From: Okeania sp.
Lineage (GTDB): Bacteria > Cyanobacteriota > Cyanobacteriia > Cyanobacteriales > Microcoleaceae
Reading direction: 5' to 3'
DNA length: 32,000 bases
NCBI RefSeq assembly: GCF_035285525.1
Contig: NZ_JAYKGW010000171.1
Location: 47,436-79,435, forward strand
Numbering within the stretch: position 1 is the stretch's first letter; each line of letters opens with the position of its first letter. Below the pieces are notes generated by a model that worked only from the letters and a program-made list of their open reading frames with translations, made no database searches and had not been told where the DNA came from. This document shows, piece after piece, positions 1-31,795 of this stretch. Position numbers and translations under genes: made by a program.

Positions 1-3000
1 GATGTCAGTTATAAAGACTTAACAGATGGTGGTTATGAAGTCAAACTAGATAATTTTGATTTGCAGAAATTTGTCAAAGATACCACCAAAGTCGAGTTAC
101 CTATAGATGCCAAAGTAGATGATGCAGTAATTAAAATTACCAAAGTCACCAAAGGCGAGCAAGAGGTAAATAATTATGATATCAGCGGTAAGATAAATAA
201 CGCCGATGTCAGTTATAAAGACTTAACAGATGGTGGTTATGAAGTCAAATTTGATGACGAGTTAGACCTGAGTGCTGTGGTGAAGGCAGCAGCTAACGAT
301 CCTAATTTACCAATTCCTTCCCTCAGCTTAAATAAACCTAGTCTGACTTACAGCAAGGATGACTCTGAGACAAAATATAGTTTCACCCTGGCAGATGAGT
401 CATCAATTAGCTACACCAAAAAATCTAATAACGATTATGAGTTTATCGTAGATCATTTCCCCATTGGTAAATTAAGCGAATGGATTGACACTGATCTGGG
501 CATCTCTGGTGCTAGTGAAGTCTTTAAAGGGAACCTTGATGTTGAAATCAGCCCCAATAAGAAAGAAATAGTTTTAGATGGCACTGTAGATTTTGGCAAG
601 TTTATGAAACCGCTCATTAATTATGATGTTTCTTGGAAAGTTAATAAACCTACCTTAAGCTACACAACTCTAGGGGGAGAAACTAAATACAGTTTCTCAG
701 ATACGAGCAAATCTATTAGCTACGCCAAAGATGCTAAAGGGCAAACTACTTTTAAGGTTGATAACTTCCCAATAGGAGATATCGCTAATGTCGTTGCTAG
801 CGGACTAGGATTAAGCAGTAGTAATTTACCAAAATGGATAGTTGATGCGACAATCAGTCCCACTGAGAAGAGTTTAAGTGTTGATGGCGAAATTGCTGTC
901 AAAGACTTTGCAGACTTCGTAGGGTTAAATTTACCAGATGGATTAAATTTAAGTTTGAAAAACCCCAATCTTAGCGTCAAAGGGACAGATAAAAATAAGA
1001 GCTTCGATTTTTCAGGAACCGGGACACTGACTTTACCTAAAGACTCTTTTGATGATTTTACAGAAATTGCCGATTTGTTACCAGGTATAGAGGCAACAGC
1101 TTCAGGGTTAGAGGTATCGGGAGATATTGCAGTTAGCAAATTAAGCTCTGGTGATATTGGATTGCAATTGGGAGTGCCAGTGCTAGGAGCTATCCGGTTA
1201 GAGCGCGAAAACGATAAATGGAAATTAGCAGCTATAGAGGATGGCGATCGCCTAACCATAGCAGACTTAGGAGTAGTCGCCACCAACGACGAATACAGTT
1301 TTACAGATTTATTTAACTATGAATTTAAGGGTGATGCCAATCTGGGATTAAAAACCAAGACGAGCATAGAAGGTAACTCAGCTTTCCCTTCTTTTAATGT
1401 TGATATCGCTGCCGATCTACCTTTATTTAACTATGGCAGTCAGGAAGAAGCAGATGATCGAGGTTTCGATATTGCCTTCAATAATCTCGAAATCGACCTC
1501 GGCACCTTCTTGAGCGACCTTGCTAAACCTGTAGTCGTTGAAGTTGACAGAATTATCGATCCGATTAAGCCAGTTATTAAAGCTCTACAAGCTGATACTA
1601 AGTTACTGTCCAAATTAAAGTTAGAAAGCAAGTTTGATAAAGATGGAAAACCAGGTGTATCTATATTAGAGATTGCGGAAACACTACTTCCTGAAAACAA
1701 AAAAATACAAACAGCAATTACATTTGCCAAGACTGTCAGCGGAATAGTTGATACAGTTGATGCTTTAAATAAGCAGGAAGGCAATAAAAGAATTCCTTTA
1801 GGAAGCTACAATCTAGATGATTTTAAAGCTGCAAGTCAGGATGATGCTGATGATGCCAGCAAGAAGAGTGACTCCATTAAGTTAGATACAGATGATAAAT
1901 CGAAAGACACATCCGAGGATAAATCGAAAGATAAATCTACACCAGAAGAACAAGCAAAAGAAAATGAGGCTTATAAGTCATTTAGTTCTTTAGAAGGAAT
2001 TTCTATTCCTTTGATTGAGAAACCTATCAATGCAGCTTACTTGCTTTTAGGAAAAAATGTGGATTTGATTAAGTATGATATTCCCGATCTTGAATTTGGT
2101 TTTGAACTCAGCCAAAGTTTCCCCTTTTGGACTCCGCCTCTAATTTCCGGCAAATTAGGAGGAGGTATTACGGCGAAAACAGACCTAGCCATTGGTTTTG
2201 ATACTTACGGTGTTAATCAATGGTGGAAAAAATATAATTTCGATCCTGCTAAAGCTTATTTAGTATTTGATGGTTTCTACTTAGACGACTTTGACAAAGA
2301 CGGCAAGGATAAGCCGGAGTTCAGTTTGGACGGTGACATTAGTGCAGGCGTGAATGTCAGCATATTAGCCGCCTCTGCTGAAGTAAAAGGTGGTGTTGAT
2401 GGCAATGTTAGTTTTGATGTCGAAGATGTGGGCGAGAAAACTGGTAAAAACGATGGTAAAATCCGAGGTTCGGAAATTCTTTCTCGAATTAACGACCCAT
2501 TATCCTTATTTGAGCTTTACGGTAAGATCGATGCTTACCTCAAAGGAGAAGCTAAAGTTTTTGGTTTGGGAACAGTTTGGGAGAAAGAATTTGCTCGTTT
2601 CAACTTAGCAGAATTCCGTATCGACAAATCAGGTGCTAGTGCTTCCGCTATTGGTGGCAAATATTCTACCAGTTATATTGCTGATGCCACTATCTTCCTA
2701 GATGCCAACCTCAACGGATTACTAGACGACAATGAACCTGTCACCGTCACTGATAGCAATGGTAACTACAACCTAGAATTTGACATCGAATACTACGATA
2801 CTAACGGCAATGGAAAATTGGATGCAGAAGAAGGGCAAATAGTTGCCATGGGGGGTGTCGATACTTCCAGTGGCGTGAACATTACCACTCAAATGGTGGG
2901 CAGCGTAGAATCTGCAGTGCTAACACCTCTAACTAACCTACAAAAGTTTTTAGTCCAAGAAGAATATGTAGCATCTAACAAAGCAGCCGACAAACTGATG

Positions 3001-6000
3001 ACTGAGAAATTAGATTTACCAAAAGGAGGAAGTTTAGCAGACAACGACCCCATAGCTGATATTGGTGACGACCAAGGGTTAGTCCAGAAAGTAGGTGTAG
3101 AATTTTATCTAGCTCATGTGGAATTGCAAAATATCATCGTTCATGCTAACGCTTTGGTTCAAGGTGTTAATTCTGAAATTGATTCTATCTACTTAGAGAA
3201 AATCGTCACTCAAGGGTTAGCTGAAGCATTGACATCTGAGAAAGTAAGTTTCGACCTCAGCAATGCTGAGGATGTAGAATTTATATTAAAAGAAATTGCT
3301 GCACAAAGCACTAAACCAGATATTGCCAATGGTGAAGAAGAAGAAGGCACTAAACCAGATATTGCCAATGGTGAAGAGATATCTGCTGATATCATCGAAA
3401 CAGTAGCCGAAATGGTGGCTGAAGCTAACGCCCTCATTGATGAAATGGCAACCGCAGCAGAAAAACAAAGTCTCGAACTGGTGATGCCAACTGTTGCTCC
3501 CGTTAAGCGATCTACCCAAGGAGAACTGACGAAAATCACAAAAGAACTTGCTGCGGGCAAATCAACTCCCGAAACTGCACAAGAGCAATTTACAACCCAG
3601 CTAGAAGAAAGCAACCGGTTGGAGCCACAACTCATTAGTGATACTCGCAAGGTCAAAGTTTACTCCACAGGAGATGGGGAGATAGATGAAAACACTGGTA
3701 AAACTATTGACATCGTTATTGAATTAGGAGAACCAGCACCAAATCAAGGTGTGAATATTCTCTACAATATTTCCGGTACTGCTACCGAAGGGGAAGATTA
3801 TCAAATAGTAGGACTACCTAATGGTGGTTCCGAAATTTACATAGAACCAGGAGAAACTCAAAAAACTATAACTATCTCTCCCGAAAACGATGAGATTAGC
3901 GAGCTAACAGAATTTATCACTTTGAATCTCCGGTACGCAGCGGAAAGTTTTGTCATAGATTCGGAAATGCAAACTGCTGTGGTTCGGATTATTGATGATG
4001 AAGAACTAACAACTGGAGATCAACCAGAAGGAATATGGAAACCAGGAACAGTTGACGATGATACTTTAGTGGGCACAAAAAAACAAGACACCTTGAGTGG
4101 TAATTATGGTAACGACTCTATCAAGGGTAAGGCAGGTGCAGATGTCCTCCAAGGTAGTCATGGCAATGACACCATTATTGGTGGAACTGGTTCAGATGTT
4201 GTTGAAGGCAACTATGGCGATGACCTCCTTCAAGGAAACCAAGGAAATGACCAAATTCATGGGGGTTCTGGGGTAGATAGAATTTCCGGTGGTGCAGATA
4301 ACGATGACATTTATGGTGGTGCAGATGATGACAATATTTCTGGTGGTGCAGGCAATGACAATATTTCTGGTGATACAGGCAATGATAATATTTCTGGTGA
4401 TGCTAATAATGACTGGATACAAGGCGGTGTTGGTAACGATGTCATCACTGGTGGCGAAGGTCAAGATGTAGTCAATGGAGGTGATGGGGCAGATTACTTT
4501 GTCTTAAAATCTCCAGAGGAAGGATTAGATATAGTAGTTGACTTCGATCCGACTCAGGGTGACAAAATTATTATTGACTCTGCTGGTTTCAACAATCCTA
4601 CCCTGGAGGATTTCCAATTCCTCAATGGTTACTTGTATTTCCAAAAGCAACAAATTGCTCTGATCCAAAATGAAGGAGTTAGCTACAACTACTTCTCATA
4701 TTTATCAGAAATTCTGGAAATCAAAAACACTAAAACTCTGAAAACTCCGGTTAGTCCTAAAGTTACAATCCAAGAAACAGAGGGCGCTGAAGCAGAAGAA
4801 CCATCAACATCTTCTAATATTGTCTCTCGTAAAGAACCAGCCAATTTGTTCGCAGAAATATTACAGAGGGGTGTTGTCAAAGTGGGAGTTGTAAATAATC
4901 CCGTAGTTTATGAGGAACTAGAAGATGGAACAGCGCGGGGAACAGGTGCTGAATTGGGTAAAACATTAGCAAGTGCCCTGTTTGGTGATGAGAATGCAGT
5001 TGAGTATGTACTTTTAGACTTTAACCAAGGGTTTGAAGCAGTAGCTAACAAAGAAGTTGATATTCTAGATTCGGGAGCAACTTACAACCTAGTCAGAGAT
5101 GCTCTATTAGATATTGACTTTGCTCCAGTTCGCTTTTATGATAACGATGCAATAATTGTTAAAGCTGATAGGGATATTGATAATGCTCAAGAACTCCAAG
5201 GTTTGACTATTGGTGTATTTGCCGGTTCGACTACGGAGCAAAATCTCAAAGATTTCTTAGCCGAAAATAGTATAGAAGTTGAGATCATAAGCTTTAGTAG
5301 CAAGCAAGATATATTTGTATCTTATGATAACGGTGAGATAGATGCAGTAGCAAGCGATCGTACTGTTTTAGCAAGCTTGATTCCCACTTTCTCTAATCCC
5401 GACAACCACAAAATACTAGACGAAGAAATTTCGGAAGGACCTTTAGCACCAATCCTGCCAGAAAATGAATCAGAGTGGGCAGATGTGGTGCGTTGGGTAA
5501 CTTATGTACCTATTCAAGCTGAAGAATTTGCCATTACCTCTAAAAACATTGACCAAGTGAAAGCCGATAGCCAAGACCCAGCTATACGTCGCTTCTTAGG
5601 ATTAGGTGGCAATTTAGAAGGTAATTTAGGGGAAACCCTCGGTTTACCCGCAGACTTCGCAGAAAATGTAATTAAATCTGTTGGTAATTACGATGAAATA
5701 TATAAACGTGTTTTCCCTGGTTTAGAACGTAAACGCAACCATCTCTGGACTAACGAAGGTTTACATTACTCACTACCTTTCTCCGGTACAACAATTTCAT
5801 CAGAATTGATTAATAATGATGAACGAGGTCTTCTGCAGGAAATATTGGAGCGTGGTGTGGTAAATGTAGGTCTCCCTGGTAATAGTCCTGGTTTTGGTGA
5901 ACAAAGAGAAGGAGAATGGCAAGGCTTTGATGTTGATTTAGGTCGCGCATTAGCAGCAGCTTTATTTGGCGATCCTGATCGAGTTAATTTTGTGGAACAG

Positions 6001-7734
6001 GATTTTGCTAAGGGTTTCCCCAATGTAGCCAATGGTAAAGTAGATGTTTCGGCAATGGCTGTTTCCCACAACTTAGTACGAGATGCAGGTTTAGGTATCG
6101 ACTACGGTCCTACCTATCTCTATACCGGACAAGGAATATTAGTCAGAAATAATAGTGGTATCACTTCTTTGCCCATGTTAAATGGTCTGAGAATAGGAGT
6201 GGTAGCAGAAAGGACTACTAAGCAAAATCTGGAAGATAACTTGGCAAAAATAGGAGGTACCTTTGTTCCCGTAGAATTTAACAGCAATAAGGACCTGTTT
6301 GCTGCCTATGAAAGTAATGAAATAGATGCCCTAGCAACAGATTTAACGATTATTGCTACCAGGATTAATGATTTTTCTAATCCTTCGGAACATCGCATCT
6401 TAAATGAAGTCTTGTCTAAAGAACCTTTAGCATTAGTGATTGATGAAAATCAGTCAGACTGGGCAGATGTTGTCCGATGGGTGACTCATACTCTGGTACA
6501 AGCAGAAGAATTTGGCATTACTCAAGAAAATGTAGATGATGTTATTGCTAATAGCGAAAATCTCCAGATTCGTCGTTTCTTAGGTTTAGAAGAAAATATA
6601 GGCGAAACTCTAGGTTTACCTAAAGATTACGCGGTACAAATAATTAAAGCTGTGGGTAACTATGGGGAAGCTTACGATCGCCACTTTAATAAGTTTAATA
6701 GCAATATTTTGCCTCGGGGTACTAACGAATTATTGAGCGACTTTGGCTTACAATATGCTTATCCTTTGGGAGTACCTCCAGTTACTGAAGATGAACCAAC
6801 TGTCCCTATTCAGGAAGACTCTTCGCCACAACAACAAGATGATGAAATTGATGCTGCTGATACTACCACACCTGATGAGACTGAAGATACAGAGACGTCT
6901 GATGAAACTCAAGACACAGAGGATACTACGTCTGATGAGACTGAAGATACAGAAAGTACCATATCTGATGAGACTGAAGATACAGAAAATACCTCAACTC
7001 TAGAAGATGAAACAGGAGAACAGACAACTCTCGACCCTAATGATGGACAAGAGTCTATAGAAGAGGAAGTAGAAGCAGGTCAAGTTACAATAGGTACTGA
7101 TGGTAGCAATACTTTGTCAGGCGGTTCGGACAATAATGTGCTTTACGGTATGCGGGATGACGATGTGCTTTATGGTAATGCAGGAGAGGACACTACTTAT
7201 GGTGGTAAAGGGAATGACCTAATTATTGGAGGCGACGGTGACGACCTTCTTTATGGAAATAATGACAATGATACTATTGAAGGTGAAGGGGGTAACGATG
7301 AAGTTCATGGTAATCGTGGATTAGATTTTATTAATGGTGGCGATGGTGACGATCTACTTTATGGTGGTAAAGATTCTGATCGTATTTTGGGAGGTGCAGA
7401 TAACGACACTATCTTTGGCGATCAGGGTAATGACTTATTAGAAGGTAATGAAGGGGATGATTTGATTGATGGTGGTGAGGGAGATAATACTCTTAGTGGT
7501 GGTCAGGGTGGCGATCGCTTTGTATTAGCTCCAGGTAACAGCAATCTGATTCTAGATTTTGAGGATGGTATTGATTTCTTACAGCTTGAAGATGGTATTG
7601 CTTTTGAGGATTTGACTTTAACTGAAGAATCAGGAAACACTGTGGTTGAGTTGAACTCGGAACGCTTGGCTATTGTTTCGGGGGTAGCTTCTGGTTTGCT
7701 AACAGCAGAAGATTTTCTCATTGCTGAAAGTTAA
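1..7734 (+). CDS. Giant secreted multidomain protein, 5'-partial (repeat modules / Calx-beta / RTX / 2x solute-binding domain / acidic repeats / RTX plus C-terminal tail)
   Basis: Frame 1 is open from nt 1, and the listed start at 61 is only the first TTG. Stop is TAA 7732-7734. The ORF contains GGxGxD nonapeptide runs, a Calx-beta-like segment and AapJ-like segments in one uninterrupted 7.7-kb reading frame. Confidence 0.9.
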   Translation, partial: DVSYKDLTDGGYEVKLDNFDLQKFVKDTTKVELPIDAKVDDAVIKITKVTKGEQEVNNYDISGKINNADVSYKDLTDGGYEVKFDDELDLSAVVKAAANDPNLPIPSLSLNKPSLTYSKDDSETKYSFTLADESSISYTKKSNNDYEFIVDHFPIGKLSEWIDTDLGISGASEVFKGNLDVEISPNKKEIVLDGTVDFGKFMKPLINYDVSWKVNKPTLSYTTLGGETKYSFSDTSKSISYAKDAKGQTTFKVDNFPIGDIANVVASGLGLSSSNLPKWIVDATISPTEKSLSVDGEIAVKDFADFVGLNLPDGLNLSLKNPNLSVKGTDKNKSFDFSGTGTLTLPKDSFDDFTEIADLLPGIEATASGLEVSGDIAVSKLSSGDIGLQLGVPVLGAIRLERENDKWKLAAIEDGDRLTIADLGVVATNDEYSFTDLFNYEFKGDANLGLKTKTSIEGNSAFPSFNVDIAADLPLFNYGSQEEADDRGFDIAFNNLEIDLGTFLSDLAKPVVVEVDRIIDPIKPVIKALQADTKLLSKLKLESKFDKDGKPGVSILEIAETLLPENKKIQTAITFAKTVSGIVDTVDALNKQEGNKRIPLGSYNLDDFKAASQDDADDASKKSDSIKLDTDDKSKDTSEDKSKDKSTPEEQAKENEAYKSFSSLEGISIPLIEKPINAAYLLLGKNVDLIKYDIPDLEFGFELSQSFPFWTPPLISGKLGGGITAKTDLAIGFDTYGVNQWWKKYNFDPAKAYLVFDGFYLDDFDKDGKDKPEFSLDGDISAGVNVSILAASAEVKGGVDGNVSFDVEDVGEKTGKNDGKIRGSEILSRINDPLSLFELYGKIDAYLKGEAKVFGLGTVWEKEFARFNLAEFRIDKSGASASAIGGKYSTSYIADATIFLDANLNGLLDDNEPVTVTDSNGNYNLEFDIEYYDTNGNGKLDAEEGQIVAMGGVDTSSGVNITTQMVGSVESAVLTPLTNLQKFLVQEEYVASNKAADKLMTEKLDLPKGGSLADNDPIADIGDDQGLVQKVGVEFYLAHVELQNIIVHANALVQGVNSEIDSIYLEKIVTQGLAEALTSEKVSFDLSNAEDVEFILKEIAAQSTKPDIANGEEEEGTKPDIANGEEISADIIETVAEMVAEANALIDEMATAAEKQSLELVMPTVAPVKRSTQGELTKITKELAAGKSTPETAQEQFTTQLEESNRLEPQLISDTRKVKVYSTGDGEIDENTGKTIDIVIELGEPAPNQGVNILYNISGTATEGEDYQIVGLPNGGSEIYIEPGETQKTITISPENDEISELTEFITLNLRYAAESFVIDSEMQTAVVRIIDDEELTTGDQPEGIWKPGTVDDDTLVGTKKQDTLSGNYGNDSIKGKAGADVLQGSHGNDTIIGGTGSDVVEGNYGDDLLQGNQGNDQIHGGSGVDRISGGADNDDIYGGADDDNISGGAGNDNISGDTGNDNISGDANNDWIQGGVGNDVITGGEGQDVVNGGDGADYFVLKSPEEGLDIVVDFDPTQGDKIIIDSAGFNNPTLEDFQFLNGYLYFQKQQIALIQNEGVSYNYFSYLSEILEIKNTKTLKTPVSPKVTIQETEGAEAEEPSTSSNIVSRKEPANLFAEILQRGVVKVGVVNNPVVYEELEDGTARGTGAELGKTLASALFGDENAVEYVLLDFNQGFEAVANKEVDILDSGATYNLVRDALLDIDFAPVRFYDNDAIIVKADRDIDNAQELQGLTIGVFAGSTTEQNLKDFLAENSIEVEIISFSSKQDIFVSYDNGEIDAVASDRTVLASLIPTFSNPDNHKILDEEISEGPLAPILPENESEWADVVRWVTYVPIQAEEFAITSKNIDQVKADSQDPAIRRFLGLGGNLEGNLGETLGLPADFAENVIKSVGNYDEIYKRVFPGLERKRNHLWTNEGLHYSLPFSGTTISSELINNDERGLLQEILERGVVNVGLPGNSPGFGEQREGEWQGFDVDLGRALAAALFGDPDRVNFVEQDFAKGFPNVANGKVDVSAMAVSHNLVRDAGLGIDYGPTYLYTGQGILVRNNSGITSLPMLNGLRIGVVAERTTKQNLEDNLAKIGGTFVPVEFNSNKDLFAAYESNEIDALATDLTIIATRINDFSNPSEHRILNEVLSKEPLALVIDENQSDWADVVRWVTHTLVQAEEFGITQENVDDVIANSENLQIRRFLGLEENIGETLGLPKDYAVQIIKAVGNYGEAYDRHFNKFNSNILPRGTNELLSDFGLQYAYPLGVPPVTEDEPTVPIQEDSSPQQQDDEIDAADTTTPDETEDTETSDETQDTEDTTSDETEDTESTISDETEDTENTSTLEDETGEQTTLDPNDGQESIEEEVEAGQVTIGTDGSNTLSGGSDNNVLYGMRDDDVLYGNAGEDTTYGGKGNDLIIGGDGDDLLYGNNDNDTIEGEGGNDEVHGNRGLDFINGGDGDDLLYGGKDSDRILGGADNDTIFGDQGNDLLEGNEGDDLIDGGEGDNTLSGGQGGDRFVLAPGNSNLILDFEDGIDFLQLEDGIAFEDLTLTEESGNTVVELNSERLAIVSGVASGLLTAEDFLIAES
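331..1200 (+). repeat. Three tandem ~104-aa modules inside the giant ORF
   Basis: Units begin NKPSLTY (331), NKPTLSY (643) and KNPNLSV (958). The first two share ETKYSF, SISY.K, F.VD.FPIG and ISP..K...DG motifs. Period is 312-315 nt. Confidence 0.6.
3652..4005 (+). other. Calx-beta-like domain of the giant protein
   Basis: VKVYSTGDGE...ISGTATEGEDYQIV...IEPGETQKTITISPENDEISELTEFITLNL...VVRIIDDE matches the Calx-beta pattern GTA..G.DY...F..GE..K.......D...E..E.F. Confidence 0.7.
4056..4506 (+). other. RTX block 1 (about 14 haemolysin-type Ca-binding nonapeptides)
   Basis: GNYGNDSIKGKAGADVLQGSHGNDTIIGGTGSDVVEGNYGDDLLQGNQGNDQIHGG...GGDGADYFVL, with a 27-nt DNA periodicity. Confidence 0.85.
4846..5785 (+). 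other. Solute-binding (AapJ/BztA-like, SBP_bac_3-type) domain 1
   Basis: LQRGVVKVGV...ELGKTLASALFGD...VEYVLLDFNQGFEAVANKEVDIL...TYNLVRD...ISEGPLAPILPENESEWADVVRWVTYVPIQAEEFAITSKNIDQV...IRRFLGL...GLPADFAENVIKSVGNYDEIY...GLHYSLPF, recalled as similar along the domain length to general L-amino-acid-binding proteins. Confidence 0.75.
5830..6771 (+). other. Solute-binding (AapJ/BztA-like) domain 2
   Basis: LERGVVNVGLPGNSPGFGEQREGEWQGFDVDLGRALAAALFGDPDRVNFVEQDFAKGFPNVANGKVDV...SHNLVRDAGLGIDYGPTYLYTGQGILVR...LSKEPLALVIDENQSDWADVVRWVTHTLVQAEEFGITQENVD...IKAVGNYGEAYDRHF...GLQYAYPL. It is a paralogue of domain 1. Confidence 0.8.
6775..7075 (+). repeat. Acidic Thr/Asp/Glu-rich linker with 33-36 nt repeats
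   Basis: The DNA unit tctgatgagactgaagatacaga recurs, giving (T/S)DETEDTE repeated at the protein level. Confidence 0.7.
7093..7525 (+). other. RTX block 2 followed by a C-terminal non-repeat tail (7526-7731)
   Basis: GGSDNNVLYGMRDDDVLYGNAGEDTTYGGKGNDLIIGGDGDDLLYGNNDNDTIEGEGGNDEVHGN...GGQGGDRFVL. Terminal placement is typical of type I secretion substrates. Confidence 0.85.
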
Positions 7735-7907: not shown

Positions 7908-8525
7908 ATGAAAATTCAAAAAACAACTTTAATATTAATGTTAATAGCACTTACTTTAGGAGGATTCGTTTACTTATTTGAAATTGTAGGTAAACAAAAG
8001 CAAGCAGAAATTCAAGAACAAAGAAAACGAGTGTTTGATTTTGAGGACGAACAAATTCAGGCTGTTACTATCAAACAAAAGTCAGGAATATTAACTTTAA
8101 AGATTGACGAACAAGCAGAAGAAAAATCTTGGAATATAACTGCACCTATAGCCAAAAAAGCTGATTTACAAACAGTCGAATTTTTGTTAGATGAACTAGA
8201 AAATCTCAAAAGCGATCACTCAATTACTACTTCAGTTTCTCAGTTATCAGAATATGGTTTAGAAAAACCAGAAATAACTTTAGAAATTCAACTTAAAGAT
8301 GGTAAAACAAATCGTTTATTTTTAGGTCAACCAGACTTTGATAATAGATTTATATATTCTCAATTAGAATTGGAGGGAGAAGCACCGGAAAAAGTATCTA
8401 TTTTGTTGTTATCTATCAACTTCAAAAATATAATAACTAAACCAGTTTCTGAATGGGAAGAACAAGAAAAAATTGAAGAATCATCGGATAAAACAGAAGA
8501 ATCTTTAGATAAAAAAGATGAGTGA
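7908..8525 (+). CDS. Membrane-anchored hypothetical protein, DUF4340-like
   Basis: 205-aa ORF with an N-terminal TM helix (TLILMLIALTLGGFVYLF). The remainder resembles DUF4340-family proteins from memory, and the C-terminal tail is acidic. Confidence 0.7.
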   Translation: MKIQKTTLILMLIALTLGGFVYLFEIVGKQKQAEIQEQRKRVFDFEDEQIQAVTIKQKSGILTLKIDEQAEEKSWNITAPIAKKADLQTVEFLLDELENLKSDHSITTSVSQLSEYGLEKPEITLEIQLKDGKTNRLFLGQPDFDNRFIYSQLELEGEAPEKVSILLLSINFKNIITKPVSEWEEQEKIEESSDKTEESLDKKDE

Positions 8526-8569
8526 TAAAATTAAAATTAATTTAGTATTCTAGAGGTATTTCCTGTTAT

Positions 8570-8867
8570 TTAAACAACAGCAAACTCAGTTAAATTAAGA
8601 GTTTCCAGATCGTAGAAAGGTAAAAGAATATCTTCTTTTGGTACATTTTCCCTTAATAACTCATTAGCAATTCCTTCTTCCGTCCAATCTTCCTGAATAT
8701 AAATCTTCTCATTTTTAATCCGAATATAAACAGAAATTGCTTTAATTATTTGACCATTTTTCCAACCAATATTAAACCAAGGATATTTACTTCTTTGGTC
8801 ATTAAACATTAATAGCTAATCAATATCAGGAGCGATAACCTGTTTGATAATTAATCAATTTGTACAT
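8570..8867 (-). pseudogene. xisI: xisI-like gene, disrupted
   Basis: ATG at 8867 gives MYKLINYQTGYRS then a stop. The 79-codon ORF 8570-8809 (FNIGWKNG...IYIQEDWTEEGIANELL...VPKEDILLPF...LTEFAVV) matches the XisI C-terminal two thirds. About 20 codons are missing in between. Confidence 0.7.
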
Positions 8868-9364
8868 TTAATAATCTCCTCTTTTTTGACGTCAATTACT
8901 AATAGTATAATTTGATATTTTTGCAGTATTAATTCAATTGCAACTTGTACAAAAAAAAATCATAAATTTCGCGATCAACTGCTAAATAAACTTGATAACT
9001 AGGATGTATAATATAGCAATGTGCGCACTTAATATTTACAAATTGCCGGAGGTGTCGAATAGCTAAAAACTTTATATTATAGGCTATTCATTCTTCCTCC
9101 ATACCTGTTCCCTGTTGCCTCTTCCCTAAAAGCAGCGCTATAGAAAGAAATGTTTGATAAATTAAGTATTGTCCTAATGCTGTTTCAAATTCAAGCATCG
9201 GAGAGGGAGTCACAAAACTTTTAATTTCAATCACAATTTGTTGCCCTTCTCTGGTTGCAGAAATTGTTTTTTCACCAGCTATATCTGCAAACAATTTAAC
9301 TTCTTCATATTTAATAGGATAAGGGTCATTTCAGTTATTAGTATCTCCTGAAATCAGGAGGCAT
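8855..9364 (-). pseudogene. xisH: xisH-like gene, disrupted in three fragments
   Basis: The start fragment is MPPDF.. with a stop (9364-9338). The core is NDPYPIKYEEVKLFADIAGEK...IVIEIKSF...ALGQYLIYQ (about 9330-9145). The C-terminal fragment is QVYLAVDREIYDFFFVQVAIELILQKYQIILLVIDVKKEEIIKCTN* (about 9012-8855). Core and C-terminus are separated by about 100-130 nt carrying a GGGAACAGGGAA-type repeat, and the stop overlaps the xisI ATG. Confidence 0.7.
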
Positions 9365-9679
9365 TGAGTTATAAATAAAACTTTTATTATATCATACTTT
9401 GACAATTATTGAAAAAAGATTCTTCCTTTGAATTTTTCTTTTCCTTCTACCTTCCTCTAAATTATCGGAAGACTGAAATAAAGTCTGGTATAGCTATTAC
9501 AGCCAAGATAGTTATACTTTATCTATAAAACAGACAAGATACCTGTTAGTGTTTTACTTCACTGAAGTGAAATGAACTACAAAGACCTTAAAAATAATTT
9601 AAAATACTAAACAATCTCATACTTAAATTTATTAAGACCCAATTTCCCAATCATATTCCCAAATTAAAACATAGCAATT

Positions 9680-12044: not shown

Positions 12045-12049
12045 TTTAA

Positions 12050-12290
12050 GGAAGAAGGAAGAAGGAACAAGGAGGAAGGAGGAAGAAAAAAGGAGGAAGA
12101 AAGAAGACAAATTTCTAAGTTTATTTGAGGGAATTATTCTACCAACTTTTTTTTAAGTTATTAAGTTTTAAAAAGAGGAAGGAAGAAGAAGGAAGTAGAT
12201 AAGGAAGAAGTAAATAAGGAAGAAGACAAGTTCCTAAGTTTATTTTATGGAATTATTCTACCAACTTTTTTCAAGTTATTAAGTTTTCAA
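12050..12290. repeat. Tandem duplication of a ~120-bp unit (polypurine GGAAGAAGG/GGAGG tract plus AT-rich tail)
   Basis: agaagacaaatttctaagtttatttgagggaattattctaccaac at 12102 recurs as agaagacaagttcctaagtttattttatggaattattctaccaac at 12221. Each copy is preceded by about 50-60 nt of almost pure purine. Confidence 0.85.
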
Positions 12291-12318
12291 ATTTTAACTT
12301 GAACTGAAAGCTGATAAT

Positions 12319-12367
12319 TAGACATCCTCAAAAATTAAAAATATCATCAATTAGTCTCCCCTATTCC
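12319..12367. repeat. Copy of the GGGAAYAGGGA / TTTTTGGAGATGTCT small repeat family (reverse orientation)
   Basis: tagacatcctcaaaaattaaaaatatcatcaattagtctcccctattccc parallels 15638-15679, 20313-20392 and 28966-29033. Confidence 0.6.
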
Positions 12368-12466
12368 CAGTTAAGTGTTCCCTGTTTCCTAGCGCCTAGC
12401 GCTATAATTACTCCCCCCTATTCCCAGTTAAGTGTTCCCTGTTCCCTAGCGCCTAGCGCCATAACT
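12356..12466. repeat. Tandem 55-nt duplication immediately upstream of potB
   Basis: ctcccctattcccagttaagtgttccctgtttcctagcgcctagcgctataatta (12356-12410) is repeated at 12411-12466 with few changes. The second copy ends 4 nt before the potB ATG. Confidence 0.85.
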
Positions 12467-18748: not shown

Positions 18749-18936
18749 ATTTTTTTATTAGAACTTACGCAAAGAAAGGCACTGATAGATAGGTTCTTGG
18801 TGCGTTACCAAGTCCGCTTTTCATGTCCCGTAGCGTTTCGGCGCTTGAGCCGACATATAAAGCGGAGCTTTGCGGAACGCAAAACACACCCTACTGGACT
18901 TTTTCATCTTAAATGGTGCATTAGAAAATGGGAGAT

Positions 18937-18966
18937 GGGGTGATGGAGGGGGATGGGGGGATGGGG
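18937..18966 (+). other. G-quadruplex-forming motif
   Basis: GGGG-tgatgga-GGGGG-at-GGGGGG-at-GGGG gives four G-runs of at least 4 with loops of 7 nt or less. Confidence 0.6.
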
Positions 18967-19041
18967 TGACGAAAAAAGCTATTTTAGGTGAAACAATGCA
19001 CTACTACACTGACACACCTAAAACTGTGCAGAGCGATTTTT

Positions 19042-19311
19042 TCTACCTTGTCTACCTTATCTACCTTATCTACCTTGTCTACCTTATCTACCTTGTCTAC
19101 CTTATCTACCTTATCTACCTTGTCTACCTTATCTACCTTATCTACCTTATCTACCTTGTCTACCTTATCTACCTTGTCTACCTTATCTACCTTGTCTACC
19201 TTATCTACCTTGTCTACCTTATCTACCTTGTCTACCTTGTCTACCTTATCTACCTTGTCTACCTTATCTACCTTATCTACCTTATCTACCTTATCTACCT
19301 TGTCTACCTTA
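19042..19311. repeat. Tandem nonamer array, 30 perfect copies of TCTACCTTR
   Basis: Counted unit by unit. Position 9 reads G A A G A G A A G A A A G A G A G A G A G G A G A A A A G A. A degenerate tail runs to about 19335. The array is flanked by inverted repeat ACTGACACAC (19008-19017) and GTGTGTCAGT (19360-19369). Confidence 0.95.
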
Positions 19312-19401
19312 TCTACCTGTCCTCCTTGTCTACCCATAACCAAAAAGTAACGCACCATTGTGTGTCAGTCCACTATAGTGTTCATGGGTAAGTCCTATCT
19401 A

Positions 19402-30301: not shown

Positions 30302-31573
30302 CTACTTAACAACATTAGCGATCGCTTTTGCTAAAATATTTATACCCTCTGTTACTTCAGTCTCATTAACTATCAGTGGAGGCACAAACCGCAAAACCTT
30401 TGGACCTGCTGGCACGATTAATAAACCTTCATTCATAGCAGCTTTAACTAGCTCGATAGAAGTCAACTCGATATCTGCATTTAACTGCATACCATTAATC
30501 AAACCCCAACCGCGAACTTCCGTAAACAAATTAGGATACTTAGTTGCAATAGCATTTAATCCTACCCGCAACTGTTCCCCCCGCTGCTGTACATTTGTCA
30601 ATAAATTTTCCTGTTCCAAAGTTTGACAAACCGCCAACGCTACCGCGCAAGCAAAAGGGTTGCCACCAAAAGTGCTAGCATGACTTCCTGGCGCAAACAC
30701 ATCACAGTCAGATTTACATAACATTGCACCAATGGGGATACCGCCACCTAACCCCTTTGCAGAAGTGAAAATATCTGGTTCAATGCCCAGATTTTCATAT
30801 CCCCAAAGTTTGCCACTACGTCCCATTCCTACTTGTACTTCATCCAATATTAAAAGAATACCTTTCTCATTACAAATTTCCCTAATTCTTTGGAAATAAG
30901 CTACATCACCAGGACGGACACCCCCTTCTCCCTGAAGGGGTTCCAGCATAATAGCTGCAACCTGTCGTTCATCTTTATCTAAGAGAGCGATCGCTTTTTC
31001 TATAGCAGCAATATCATTGTAGGGAACATAATAAAATCCTGGCATCAACGGACTAAAACCTTTATGATATTTCGGTTGTCCAGTGGCAGTAATAGTTGCC
31101 AAAGTACGTCCATGAAAACTAGCATGAGCAGTCAAAATTGTAGGATTTTCTATATTTAACTTTTCATGGGCATATTTCCTGGCAAGTTTGATTGCTGCTT
31201 CATTCGCTTCTGCTCCAGAATTACAGAAAAATGCCTTGTCAGCACAAGAATGTTCTACTAACCATTGTGCTAATTCTCCCTGAGCTGGAATATAGTATAA
31301 ATTAGACACATGATGCAGTCTTTGAATTTGCTCTGACACTGTTGCCATCATCACGGGATGAGCATGACCTAAGGTACAAGTAGCTATTCCGGCCACAAAA
31401 TCTAAATATTCTTTGCCTTCAGTATCCCAAACCCGACAACCTTGACCCCGTTCGAGGGCAAGGGGGAAACGCCCGTAAGTGTTCATCACATAAGCGTTGA
31501 AATTCTCAGCACTAAATGTTGTGTATGTACCAATTGTTTCTAGAGACTGTTTAACTATTGTTTCTGGAGTCAT
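30302..31573 (-). CDS. argD: Acetylornithine aminotransferase (class III PLP aminotransferase)
   Basis: YGRFPLALERGQGCRVWDTEGKEYLDF, LILDEVQVGMGRSGKLW and the PLP-lysine region TSAKGLGGGIPIGA. Confidence 0.9.
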   Translation of the reverse strand: MTPETIVKQSLETIGTYTTFSAENFNAYVMNTYGRFPLALERGQGCRVWDTEGKEYLDFVAGIATCTLGHAHPVMMATVSEQIQRLHHVSNLYYIPAQGELAQWLVEHSCADKAFFCNSGAEANEAAIKLARKYAHEKLNIENPTILTAHASFHGRTLATITATGQPKYHKGFSPLMPGFYYVPYNDIAAIEKAIALLDKDERQVAAIMLEPLQGEGGVRPGDVAYFQRIREICNEKGILLILDEVQVGMGRSGKLWGYENLGIEPDIFTSAKGLGGGIPIGAMLCKSDCDVFAPGSHASTFGGNPFACAVALAVCQTLEQENLLTNVQQRGEQLRVGLNAIATKYPNLFTEVRGWGLINGMQLNADIELTSIELVKAAMNEGLLIVPAGPKVLRFVPPLIVNETEVTEGINILAKAIANVVK

Positions 31574-31668: not shown

Positions 31669-31795
31669 CAGAACTTACGATAAAGAAACCCGGTTTCTAG
31701 GTTCCTCCGCCAAGAAACCGGGTTTCTAAGTTCTCCCGCCAAGAAACCCGACTTCTAAGTTCCCCCGCCAAGAAACCGGGTTTCTAGATTCGCCT
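31669..31795. mobile_element. MITE-like element, copy 14, with expanded internal unit and no recognisable right end
   Basis: The left end is CAGAACTTACGATAAAGAAACCCGGTTTCTAGG. It is followed by tandem 29-nt units. Confidence 0.6.
31683..31794. repeat. 3.9 tandem copies of a 29-nt unit
   Basis: Unit 1 is aagaaacccggtttctaggttcctccgcc (31683-31711), unit 2 aagaaaccgggtttctaagttctcccgcc (31712-31740) and unit 3 aagaaacccgacttctaagttcccccgcc (31741-31769). A partial fourth unit runs to 31794. Confidence 0.9.

Follow-up and report, generated by a model that had tools for sequence, protein, structure and literature searches.

What is a pair of amino-acid-type solute-binding domains doing in the middle of a giant RTX protein? 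The question is raised by a 32,000-nt stretch of Okeania sp. DNA (NCBI RefSeq assembly GCF_035285525.1, contig NZ_JAYKGW010000171.1, positions 47,436 to 79,435 of the forward strand; hereafter, the window), in which a single open reading frame (ORF) encodes two consecutive solute-binding protein (SBP) domains, SBP1 and SBP2, located between two blocks of RTX nonapeptide repeats. We find that this SBP pair has the type II periplasmic-binding-protein fold and is derived from AapJ/BztA/NatF-type amino-acid-binding proteins, and that it belongs to a family of giant proteins (hereafter, giants) that is widespread in filamentous cyanobacteria yet uncharacterised. An original prediction, made from the letters of the window alone, had proposed that the solute-binding fold is used here as an extracellular ligand-binding module, and this interpretation is supported by the analysis presented below.

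A solute-binding pair inside a giant RTX protein

The giant ORF lies in frame 1 of the plus strand and, its 5' end being outside the window, is open from nt 1 to the stop codon at 7732-7734, in agreement with the uninterrupted frame of more than 2570 codons that had been predicted. Because the frame extends over 2577 codons in a window of 37% G+C, a chance origin can be ruled out. The encoded protein contains no cysteine among its 2577 residues and is acidic (D+E 18.7%, K+R 7.7%). In a Pfam scan of the ORF, HemolysinCabind was matched by 10 stretches (E 5e-57) and SBP_bac_3 by two (E 2e-21), whereas kinase, permease, membrane and signalling output domains were all absent from the Pfam and NCBIfam scans. 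From the N to the C terminus, the order of the domains is Calx-beta, RTX block 1 with its own terminal cap, SBP1, SBP2, an acidic linker, RTX block 2 and a C-terminal tail. The individual parts, with the evidence for each, are as follows.

1-7734, plus strand: giant ORF, 2577 codons and stop (translation and ORF list)
331-960, plus strand: two ~104-aa repeat modules, family unassigned, aa 111-214 and 215-320 (pairwise alignment, z = 22.9)
2638-3615, plus strand: start of the cassette conserved among giants, a beta-sandwich (aa 884-968) and a ~230-aa helical bundle (colinear with all giants)
3679-3999, plus strand: Calx-beta domain, aa 1227-1333 (Pfam PF03160, fragment E 4.5e-6)
4045-4503, plus strand: RTX block 1, ~16 nonapeptides, aa 1349-1501 (HemolysinCabind and regular-expression positions)
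4504-4725, plus strand: cap, or pseudo-C-terminal segment, after RTX block 1, aa 1502-1575 (similarity to the true C-terminal end)
4726-4848, plus strand: fusion linker, aa 1576-1616, the equivalent position being intergenic in Nostoc (locus comparison)
4849-5781, plus strand: SBP1, AapJ/BztA-type solute-binding domain, aa 1617-1927 (4Z9N, E 1.4e-50; TIGR01096, E 3e-30)
5782-5832, plus strand: conserved 17-18-aa inter-domain linker, aa 1928-1944 (equal spacing in all tandem members; contains invariant residues)
5833-6768, plus strand: SBP2, AapJ/BztA-type solute-binding domain, aa 1945-2256 (4Z9N, E 2.6e-62)
6769-7110, plus strand: acidic T/D/E-rich linker, aa 2257-2370 (composition; a 33-nt repeat x 3 at 6895-6993)
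7111-7560, plus strand: RTX block 2, aa 2371-2520 (HemolysinCabind, fragment E 2.6e-30)
7561-7731, plus strand: C-terminal tail, aa 2521-2577, candidate uncleaved type I secretion signal (position and likeness to the C-termini of relatives)

SBP1 and SBP2, delimited by phmmer envelopes at the listed residues, are 47% identical to each other, and each matches the 328-aa periplasmic binding protein 4Z9N end to end at 37-38% identity, including the long C-terminal helical extension. Both domains also match TIGR01096, with scores of 105-121 bits that fall under the 256-bit cut-off of that model. An AlphaFold2 (AF2) model of the pair, with a predicted local distance difference test score (pLDDT) of 91.5 and a predicted template modelling score (pTM) of 0.91, superposes on 4Z9N with a template modelling score (TM) of 0.94 and a root-mean-square deviation of 1.8 Å. 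The 4Z9N protein comes from Brucella ovis and was crystallised with glutathione (PMC6191719); it is regarded as an orthologue of BztA and a homologue of AapJ (bioRxiv 10.64898/2026.05.04.722672). Given the full-length matches to 4Z9N and the kinship of 4Z9N with BztA and AapJ, the AapJ/BztA-type assignment is right, and the phmmer envelopes agree with the nt 4846-6771 predicted for the two paralogous segments.

The remaining parts differ in how clearly they can be recognised. The two RTX blocks, both of which had been predicted, contain in-register nonapeptides of the form GGxGxDxUx, ~13 of them in block 2, and the intervening linker is as acidic as had been described (37% D+E, 21% T and no K or R). 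The predicted Calx-beta segment was detected only when scanned alone, scoring 27.1 bits against a cut-off of 27 and thus just reaching the threshold; Pfam also matched Calx-beta in relatives P0067 and P0071. As for the ~104-aa repeat modules, self-BLAST was blank and direct pairwise alignment brought out two clear copies, a third not being significant; this part is weaker than had been predicted. Related modules are also present in the Planktothrix and MAG82 orthologues, and the latter (P0065) carries, as judged by eye, ~20 copies of a ~62-aa unit. The beta-sandwich and helical bundle (aa 880-1205) are kept in every giant, immediately upstream of Calx-beta. The beta-sandwich contains a D/N-rich motif resembling a Ca site, FLDANLNGLLDDNEPVTVTDSNGNYNL, and the AF2 model of the two parts together (pLDDT 82, pTM 0.82) found no match among folds of the Protein Data Bank (best E 0.33). 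Finally, the 57 aa between the end of RTX block 2 and the stop codon resemble the C-termini of relatives, with the pattern '...LA.L.GV....L....F', and would be a candidate type I secretion signal.

Recurrence of the cassette in filamentous cyanobacteria

At least 17 giants of 1100-6571 aa were counted, all from filamentous cyanobacteria, among them proteins of Scytonema sp. UIC 10036 (WP_155746486.1, 5524 aa), Microcoleus sp. FACHB-672 (WP_190665576.1, 2728 aa), Microcoleus sp. MON1_C1 (WP_333406596.1, 2261 aa), an Elainellaceae metagenome-assembled genome (MAG; 6571 aa) and a Hormoscilla MAG (6366 aa). In at least 17 giants, a cassette corresponding to window aa ~890-2258 is colinear and 38-47% identical to the window protein, with the order beta-sandwich and helical bundle, Calx-beta, RTX block with cap, SBP1 and SBP2; the two closest relatives align over nearly the entire window protein (56% and 59% identity). 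The surroundings of the cassette are variable: upstream are DUF4347, LamG, FG-GAP, PA14 or beta-helix repeats, and downstream are either RTX repeats with a secretion-type tail, or DUF4114, or other sequences.

The named tandem-SBP proteins obtained in a search with the SBP pair all come from filamentous cyanobacteria (Laspinema, Nostoc, Hormoscilla, Planktothrix, Coleofasciculus, Aerosakkonema, Oscillatoria and Limnoraphis), and a profile search against 1.84 billion representatives returned many further giants with the SBP pair close to the C-terminus. The database names of the giants are all generic ('DUF4347 domain-containing', for example, or 'transporter substrate-binding domain-containing' or 'LamG-like jellyroll'), and we found no description of SBP domains within RTX or type I secretion proteins in the searchable literature, in an RTX review or in a 2026 RTX-adhesin survey. 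Whether the architecture was already catalogued had been left open by the original prediction: it is common in this group of bacteria, but it has not been characterised, and no describing paper was found. Apparent tandems in Waterburya, Pleurocapsa and a Promineifilaceae MAG were excluded, as they are two adjacent, separate, Cys-containing periplasmic SBP genes. In the Scytonema giant (P0060), the SBP pair is followed by a DUF4114-like segment and then by a C-terminal part of ~450 aa that, by eye, is subtilase (S8)-like (HGTHVAG ... GTSMAAA).

This recurrence bears on whether the fused gene could be an artefact, that is, an assembly chimera or a decaying pseudogene joining an RTX gene to a periplasmic SBP gene. 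The orthologue of Planktothrix sp. GU0601_MAG3 (CP136572.1, JAULAM010000015.1; loci L002, L004 and L005) would fit such an explanation, since 1-nt frame changes break it up into 8 ORFs or more. One change falls exactly between SBP1 and SBP2, by an A3 run (L002:13172-13178); the changes represent either long-read error or pseudogenisation. However, the junctions and the order of domains are identical, in uninterrupted frames, in at least 17 independent genomes or MAGs, so that the single frame is intact both here and elsewhere, and 2577 stop-free codons at the given G+C content argue against decay. In loci L006, L007 and L008, the SBP pair lies within uninterrupted ORFs of 3041-4275 aa, the upstream region of L006, the closest orthologue, being interrupted by runs of N. 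Furthermore, the embedded domains form Cys-free clades of their own, apart from the periplasmic SBPs. Because the architecture recurs in independent genomes, an artefact is effectively excluded, and we assign it a negligible chance.

Fusion, fission and duplication

RTX block 1 and the ~75 aa that follow it align with RTX block 2 and the true C-terminus, with 38% identity through the cap; a complete RTX end is thus present a second time, in the interior of the window protein. In Nostoc sp. (JBALCS010000038.1; L088 1370-13348), a giant RTX gene of 2845 aa terminates at its own RTX cap, and the cap segment of the window protein resembles this real C-terminus. A separate gene for an SBP pair with DUF4114, without a signal peptide, lies 94 nt downstream in the same frame, with two stops between. 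The Nostoc gene pair is a split version of the fused gene in the window. Stand-alone SBP pairs are also present in Laspinema, Microcoleus and Phormidium. That the pair is found linked to giant RTX proteins time and again argues for a shared function. Stand-alone tandem SBPs of ~740-830 aa (P0006, P0009, P0011-P0014, P0017, P0018 and P0028-P0030; loci L009, L010 and L015) share the N-terminal motif NFNENTYLQQNxDVAxAVxxGxFxSGxxHWxxxGFxEGR; the part bearing this motif has no recorded Pfam domain, and the proteins lack a signal peptide.

Across the members of the family, mean identity is 55% among SBP1 domains and 53% among SBP2 domains, compared with 42% between SBP1 and SBP2 and 35% between either of them and single-domain periplasmic homologues. 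Because identity within each position exceeds that between positions, the duplication is older than the radiation of the family. The spacer between SBP1 and SBP2 is 17-18 aa in every tandem member.

Departures from periplasmic solute-binding proteins

The embedded domains differ consistently from their periplasmic homologues. A signal or lipoprotein peptide and 3-5 cysteines are present in 12/12 single-domain homologues, whereas the 47 tandem relatives all lack an N-terminal signal peptide and are mostly devoid of Cys; the giants contain 0-4 Cys each at lengths of up to 6571 aa. The residues equivalent to C136 and C178 of 4Z9N are Cys in 13/13 single-domain proteins and are replaced by G and by I, V or L, respectively, in all embedded copies. 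In addition, R73, R87 and E144, which are invariant in the periplasmic relatives, have given way to small or hydrophobic residues, and because of these replacements, the side-chain specificity of the embedded domains must differ from that of the periplasmic relatives. Genes for an amino-acid ATP-binding cassette (ABC) permease or ATPase were found neither in the window nor near the loci of relatives. The only ABC genes in the window, PotA/D/B/C-like and downstream of the giant ORF, are of the polyamine type, as had been noted in the original prediction together with the absence of an adjoining amino-acid permease.

These departures bear on one alternative explanation, extracellular retention or scavenging, under which the tethered SBP pair would concentrate leaking or diffusing amino acids for re-uptake by ordinary importers. 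The canonical alpha-amino-acid residues are kept in both window domains and in SBP2 of the giants (see below), and tandem substrate-binding domains (SBDs) fused to a transporter, as in GlnPQ (6H30), are a known route to higher local capture of substrate. However, two sites per 2600-6500 aa (280-700 kDa) make for poor stoichiometry, and an SBP beyond the outer membrane would be unable to dock on an inner-membrane permease. The permease genes are unlinked, and the residues R73, R87 and E144, which specify side-chain recognition, are lost. Given this cost and topology, a scavenger role is unlikely.

The ligand pocket

Six positions of 4Z9N, namely T90, R95, D96, T142/T143 and D184, are taken by us, from their spacing and from homology to GlnBP/HisJ-type proteins rather than from coordinates, to be the contacts of the alpha-carboxylate and alpha-ammonium groups of the ligand. 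Their equivalents in the window protein and their occurrence among 17 giants are as follows.

4Z9N T90: SBP1 T1694, SBP2 S2022; giants, SBP1 13/17, SBP2 17/17 (T or S)
4Z9N R95: SBP1 R1699, SBP2 R2027; giants, SBP1 10/17, SBP2 17/17
4Z9N D96: SBP1 D1700, SBP2 D2028; giants, SBP1 14/17, SBP2 17/17
4Z9N T142: SBP1 T1744, SBP2 T2072; giants, SBP1 11/17, SBP2 16/17
4Z9N T143: SBP1 T1745, SBP2 T2073; giants, SBP1 1/17 (S 7, G 4, A 4), SBP2 2/17 (S 8, A 5)
4Z9N D184: SBP1 D1786, SBP2 D2114; giants, SBP1 16/17, SBP2 17/17

The canonical pocket residues are thus present in both window domains, with S in place of T at position 90 of SBP2. Among the 17 giants, four of the five pocket positions defined a priori are within the 28% most conserved columns of SBP2 (P = 0.02), while in SBP1 only one of the five canonical positions is at least 94% conserved. 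To judge from these residues, SBP2 most likely still binds a ligand with a free alpha-amino-acid group, and SBP1 is most likely a second site in the window organism and a degenerate partner in other giants.

The uneven conservation of the two pockets invites a different explanation, in which the SBP fold would be a structural or protein-protein module without a small ligand, acting in filament self-association, in docking of a partner or as a bulky, fast-folding aid to secretion. Non-ligand uses of the fold have precedents in the non-transport SBP domain of MltF and in the closed, ligand-free second Venus flytrap (VFT) domain, VFT2, of BvgS. Weak MltF matches were obtained with NCBIfam, and the tandem VFTs of BvgS and EvgS were retrieved by Foldseek. 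The SBP1 pocket is degenerate in many giants (R95 in 10/17, and the single well-conserved position noted above), the fixed 17-18-aa linker together with the pTM of the modelled pair suggests a rigid two-domain body, and SBP2 can be followed by different, exchangeable tails (RTX, DUF4114 or other). What is hard to explain without a ligand is the retention of Arg/Asp/Asp and of T or S at position 90 in SBP2 of 17/17 giants at ~53% overall identity. Given the frequent degeneracy of SBP1 and the apparent rigidity of the pair, a structural or docking role is the leading rival; we nevertheless consider it doubtful.

The same pocket and fold matches have also been weighed with respect to a ligand-gated sensor, in which binding of an amino acid would close the flytraps and change how the giant protein adheres, its mechanical state or the way in which it interacts with a receptor, so that aggregation or gliding would be coupled to amino-acid supply. 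BvgS (4Q0C) and EvgS (9ILW) are among the best fold matches of the pair, the SBP2 pocket is conserved, and the family is limited to filamentous, mostly gliding or mat-forming cyanobacteria. However, the ORF contains no signalling output domain, and the coupling itself is something that we infer; a sensor role appears improbable.

A proposed distal ligand-binding module of a secreted surface protein

Substrates of type I secretion are typically acidic and Cys-free, with terminal RTX repeats and without an N-terminal signal peptide (PMC3034196). The window protein has tandem nonapeptides, an acidic composition and no Cys, the giants in general are acidic with hardly any Cys, and the full-length relative P0068 begins with DUF4347 instead of a signal peptide. 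On these grounds, and because the domain layout matches that of the RTX adhesins MpIBP and FrhA, we somewhat favour the reading that the SBP pair forms the ligand-binding module near the distal (C-terminal) end of a giant surface protein that is exported by type I secretion and folded by Ca2+. The giant protein, without a Sec signal, would be exported C-terminus first through a type I secretion system (T1SS) encoded elsewhere in the genome. Extracellular Ca2+ would then fold both RTX beta-rolls and the Calx-beta domain, which would flank and present the SBP pair. SBP2, and here SBP1 as well, would close on a ligand offering a free alpha-amino-acid group. This group could belong to an amino acid in free form or to a residue that is terminal or gamma-linked, as in the glutathione of 4Z9N, and binding would serve adhesion or recognition at the filament surface, not import.

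Several points weigh against this reading. No gene for an ABC, membrane fusion or TolC component of a T1SS was found, either in the 32 kb of the window or at up to 10 kb from seven relatives, and the window protein is seen without its N-terminus and hence without the region that would hold a retention module or signal peptide. For all members of the family, secretion and ligand binding are predicted from sequence. Furthermore, adhesins do not usually have a pocket that takes a small free ligand. The SBP1 pocket is degenerate in ~40% of giants, so that at least one of the two SBP domains is not always a ligand binder, and, R73, R87 and E144 being replaced, the ligand cannot be inferred from AapJ/BztA.

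More specifically, the Cys-free Venus-flytrap pair could be exported by type I secretion and act beyond the outer membrane, on a giant surface fibre, as a recognition device that depends on amino acids, for instance one in which a specific amino-acid-type ligand gates adhesion between filaments or between a filament and a partner during colony or mat formation; we put this forward only tentatively. Known uses of the solute-binding fold extend from import and chemoreception to two-component sensing, neurotransmitter receptors and enzymes. Should the proposal hold, a recognition device would put this fold to a use other than transport, membrane-receptor signalling or catalysis. An SBP without signal peptide and disulfide, carried by giant RTX exoproteins, would bring in a use that is extracellular and type-I-secreted, and the RTX-adhesin field would gain a new class of ligand-binding tip. 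No other group encodes as many RTX proteins as the cyanobacteria, and the majority of these proteins have no known function (PMC3034196). The family described here is confined to filamentous mat-, colony- or sheath-forming cyanobacteria, a Trichodesmium relative included, and the giants are candidates for the means by which filaments might recognise surfaces, partners or one another. The conserved SBP2 pocket, contained in a soluble fragment of 640 residues, makes the ligand question directly testable.

Other features of the window

The giant ORF is followed by a DUF4340 gene (7908-8525) and then by ~1.15 kb without an ORF of at least 100 aa before the potA-like gene (region 7908-9679). The spacer between the PotD-like and PotB-like genes (12048-12464) is rich in repeats, with purine-rich 7/21-bp units at 12048-12111 and two copies of a 57-bp unit at 12349-12464. 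At 19042-19318, a 9-bp unit, TCTACCTTA, is present in ~31 copies with 92% match; the overlapping ORFs that result on the two strands (18870-19391, 'YLIYLVYL...') are spurious. Directly upstream of an argD-like gene, a 29-bp unit, AAGAAACCCGGTTTCTAAGTTCCCCCGCC, is repeated 3.6 times at 31683-31786, each copy containing the short palindrome GAAACCCGGTTTC. The ArgD-like protein (30302-31573) shares 87-91% identity with Trichodesmium MAG proteins and ~79% with Microcoleus, which places the window in a Trichodesmium-related member of the Microcoleaceae. Look-ups of two window genes by exact protein sequence gave only short Logan contigs of run SRR19514071; among the GTDB representatives there was no identical locus, and JGI metagenomes scanned for exact 36-mers gave no match. 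Scanning the window with Rfam and for tRNA genes likewise gave no match.

Comparison with known systems

The separate ingredients of the window protein are already known, namely RTX exoproteins, AapJ-type SBPs, and reuse of the solute-binding fold in the SBDs of GlnPQ, the BvgS/EvgS sensors, the PEB1a adhesin and MltF. With the AapJ/BztA/NatF-type proteins (SBP_bac_3, cluster F), the embedded domains share full-length sequence similarity, the fold and the Thr/Arg/Asp/Thr/Asp set of the alpha-amino-acid site. They differ in lacking a signal peptide or lipobox, in the loss of both invariant Cys and the replacement of R73/R87/E144, and in being arranged in tandem within a giant RTX protein without cognate permease genes nearby.

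The tandem SBDs of GlnPQ and the tandem VFT sensors BvgS and EvgS likewise have two SBP_bac_3-type domains per chain and are structural neighbours of the window pair in Foldseek. However, GlnPQ is fused to a permease and BvgS and EvgS to a histidine kinase, all in the cytoplasmic membrane, whereas the window protein has no membrane or signalling domain; the mutual arrangement of SBP1 and SBP2 also differs from theirs, as the TM for the whole pair is only 0.28-0.31. The PEB1a/CBF1 protein of Campylobacter jejuni (2V25), an SBP_bac_3 'bifunctional adhesin / aspartate-glutamate-binding protein' to which an adhesin role at the cell surface is ascribed, is matched by both window segments. Unlike the window SBPs, PEB1a is a single-domain, Sec-exported component of an ABC importer that stands outside any RTX protein.

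Among cyanobacterial RTX surface proteins, oscillin, SwmA and Sll1951 are Ca2+-binding, acidic, Cys-poor exoproteins tied to the surface layer and motility (PMC3034196). They are far smaller than the window protein and have no reported SBP domains, and the likeness is drawn at the level of the RTX repeats only.

In layout, the window protein parallels the RTX adhesins. MpIBP and FrhA consist of a variable, repeat-rich N-terminal part followed by ligand-binding domains and then by RTX repeats and a tail (PMC5550230, PMC12077191). The ligand-binding domains known from RTX adhesins are sugar-, peptide- or ice-binding beta-rich folds, SBP folds going unmentioned in the RTX-adhesin survey. The window protein differs further in its second, internal RTX block with cap, and its relatives bear an N-terminal DUF4347 in place of a described retention module and have no linked Lap-type or T1SS genes. 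The adhesins MpIBP of Marinomonas primoryensis, FrhA of Vibrio cholerae, LapA and the Aeromonas hydrophila adhesin are, like the window protein, giant, acidic, Ca2+-binding proteins with a repeat-rich N-terminal part, and RTX adhesins and the window protein alike carry their ligand-binding domains, here the SBP pair between the RTX blocks, just upstream of the C-terminal RTX repeats.

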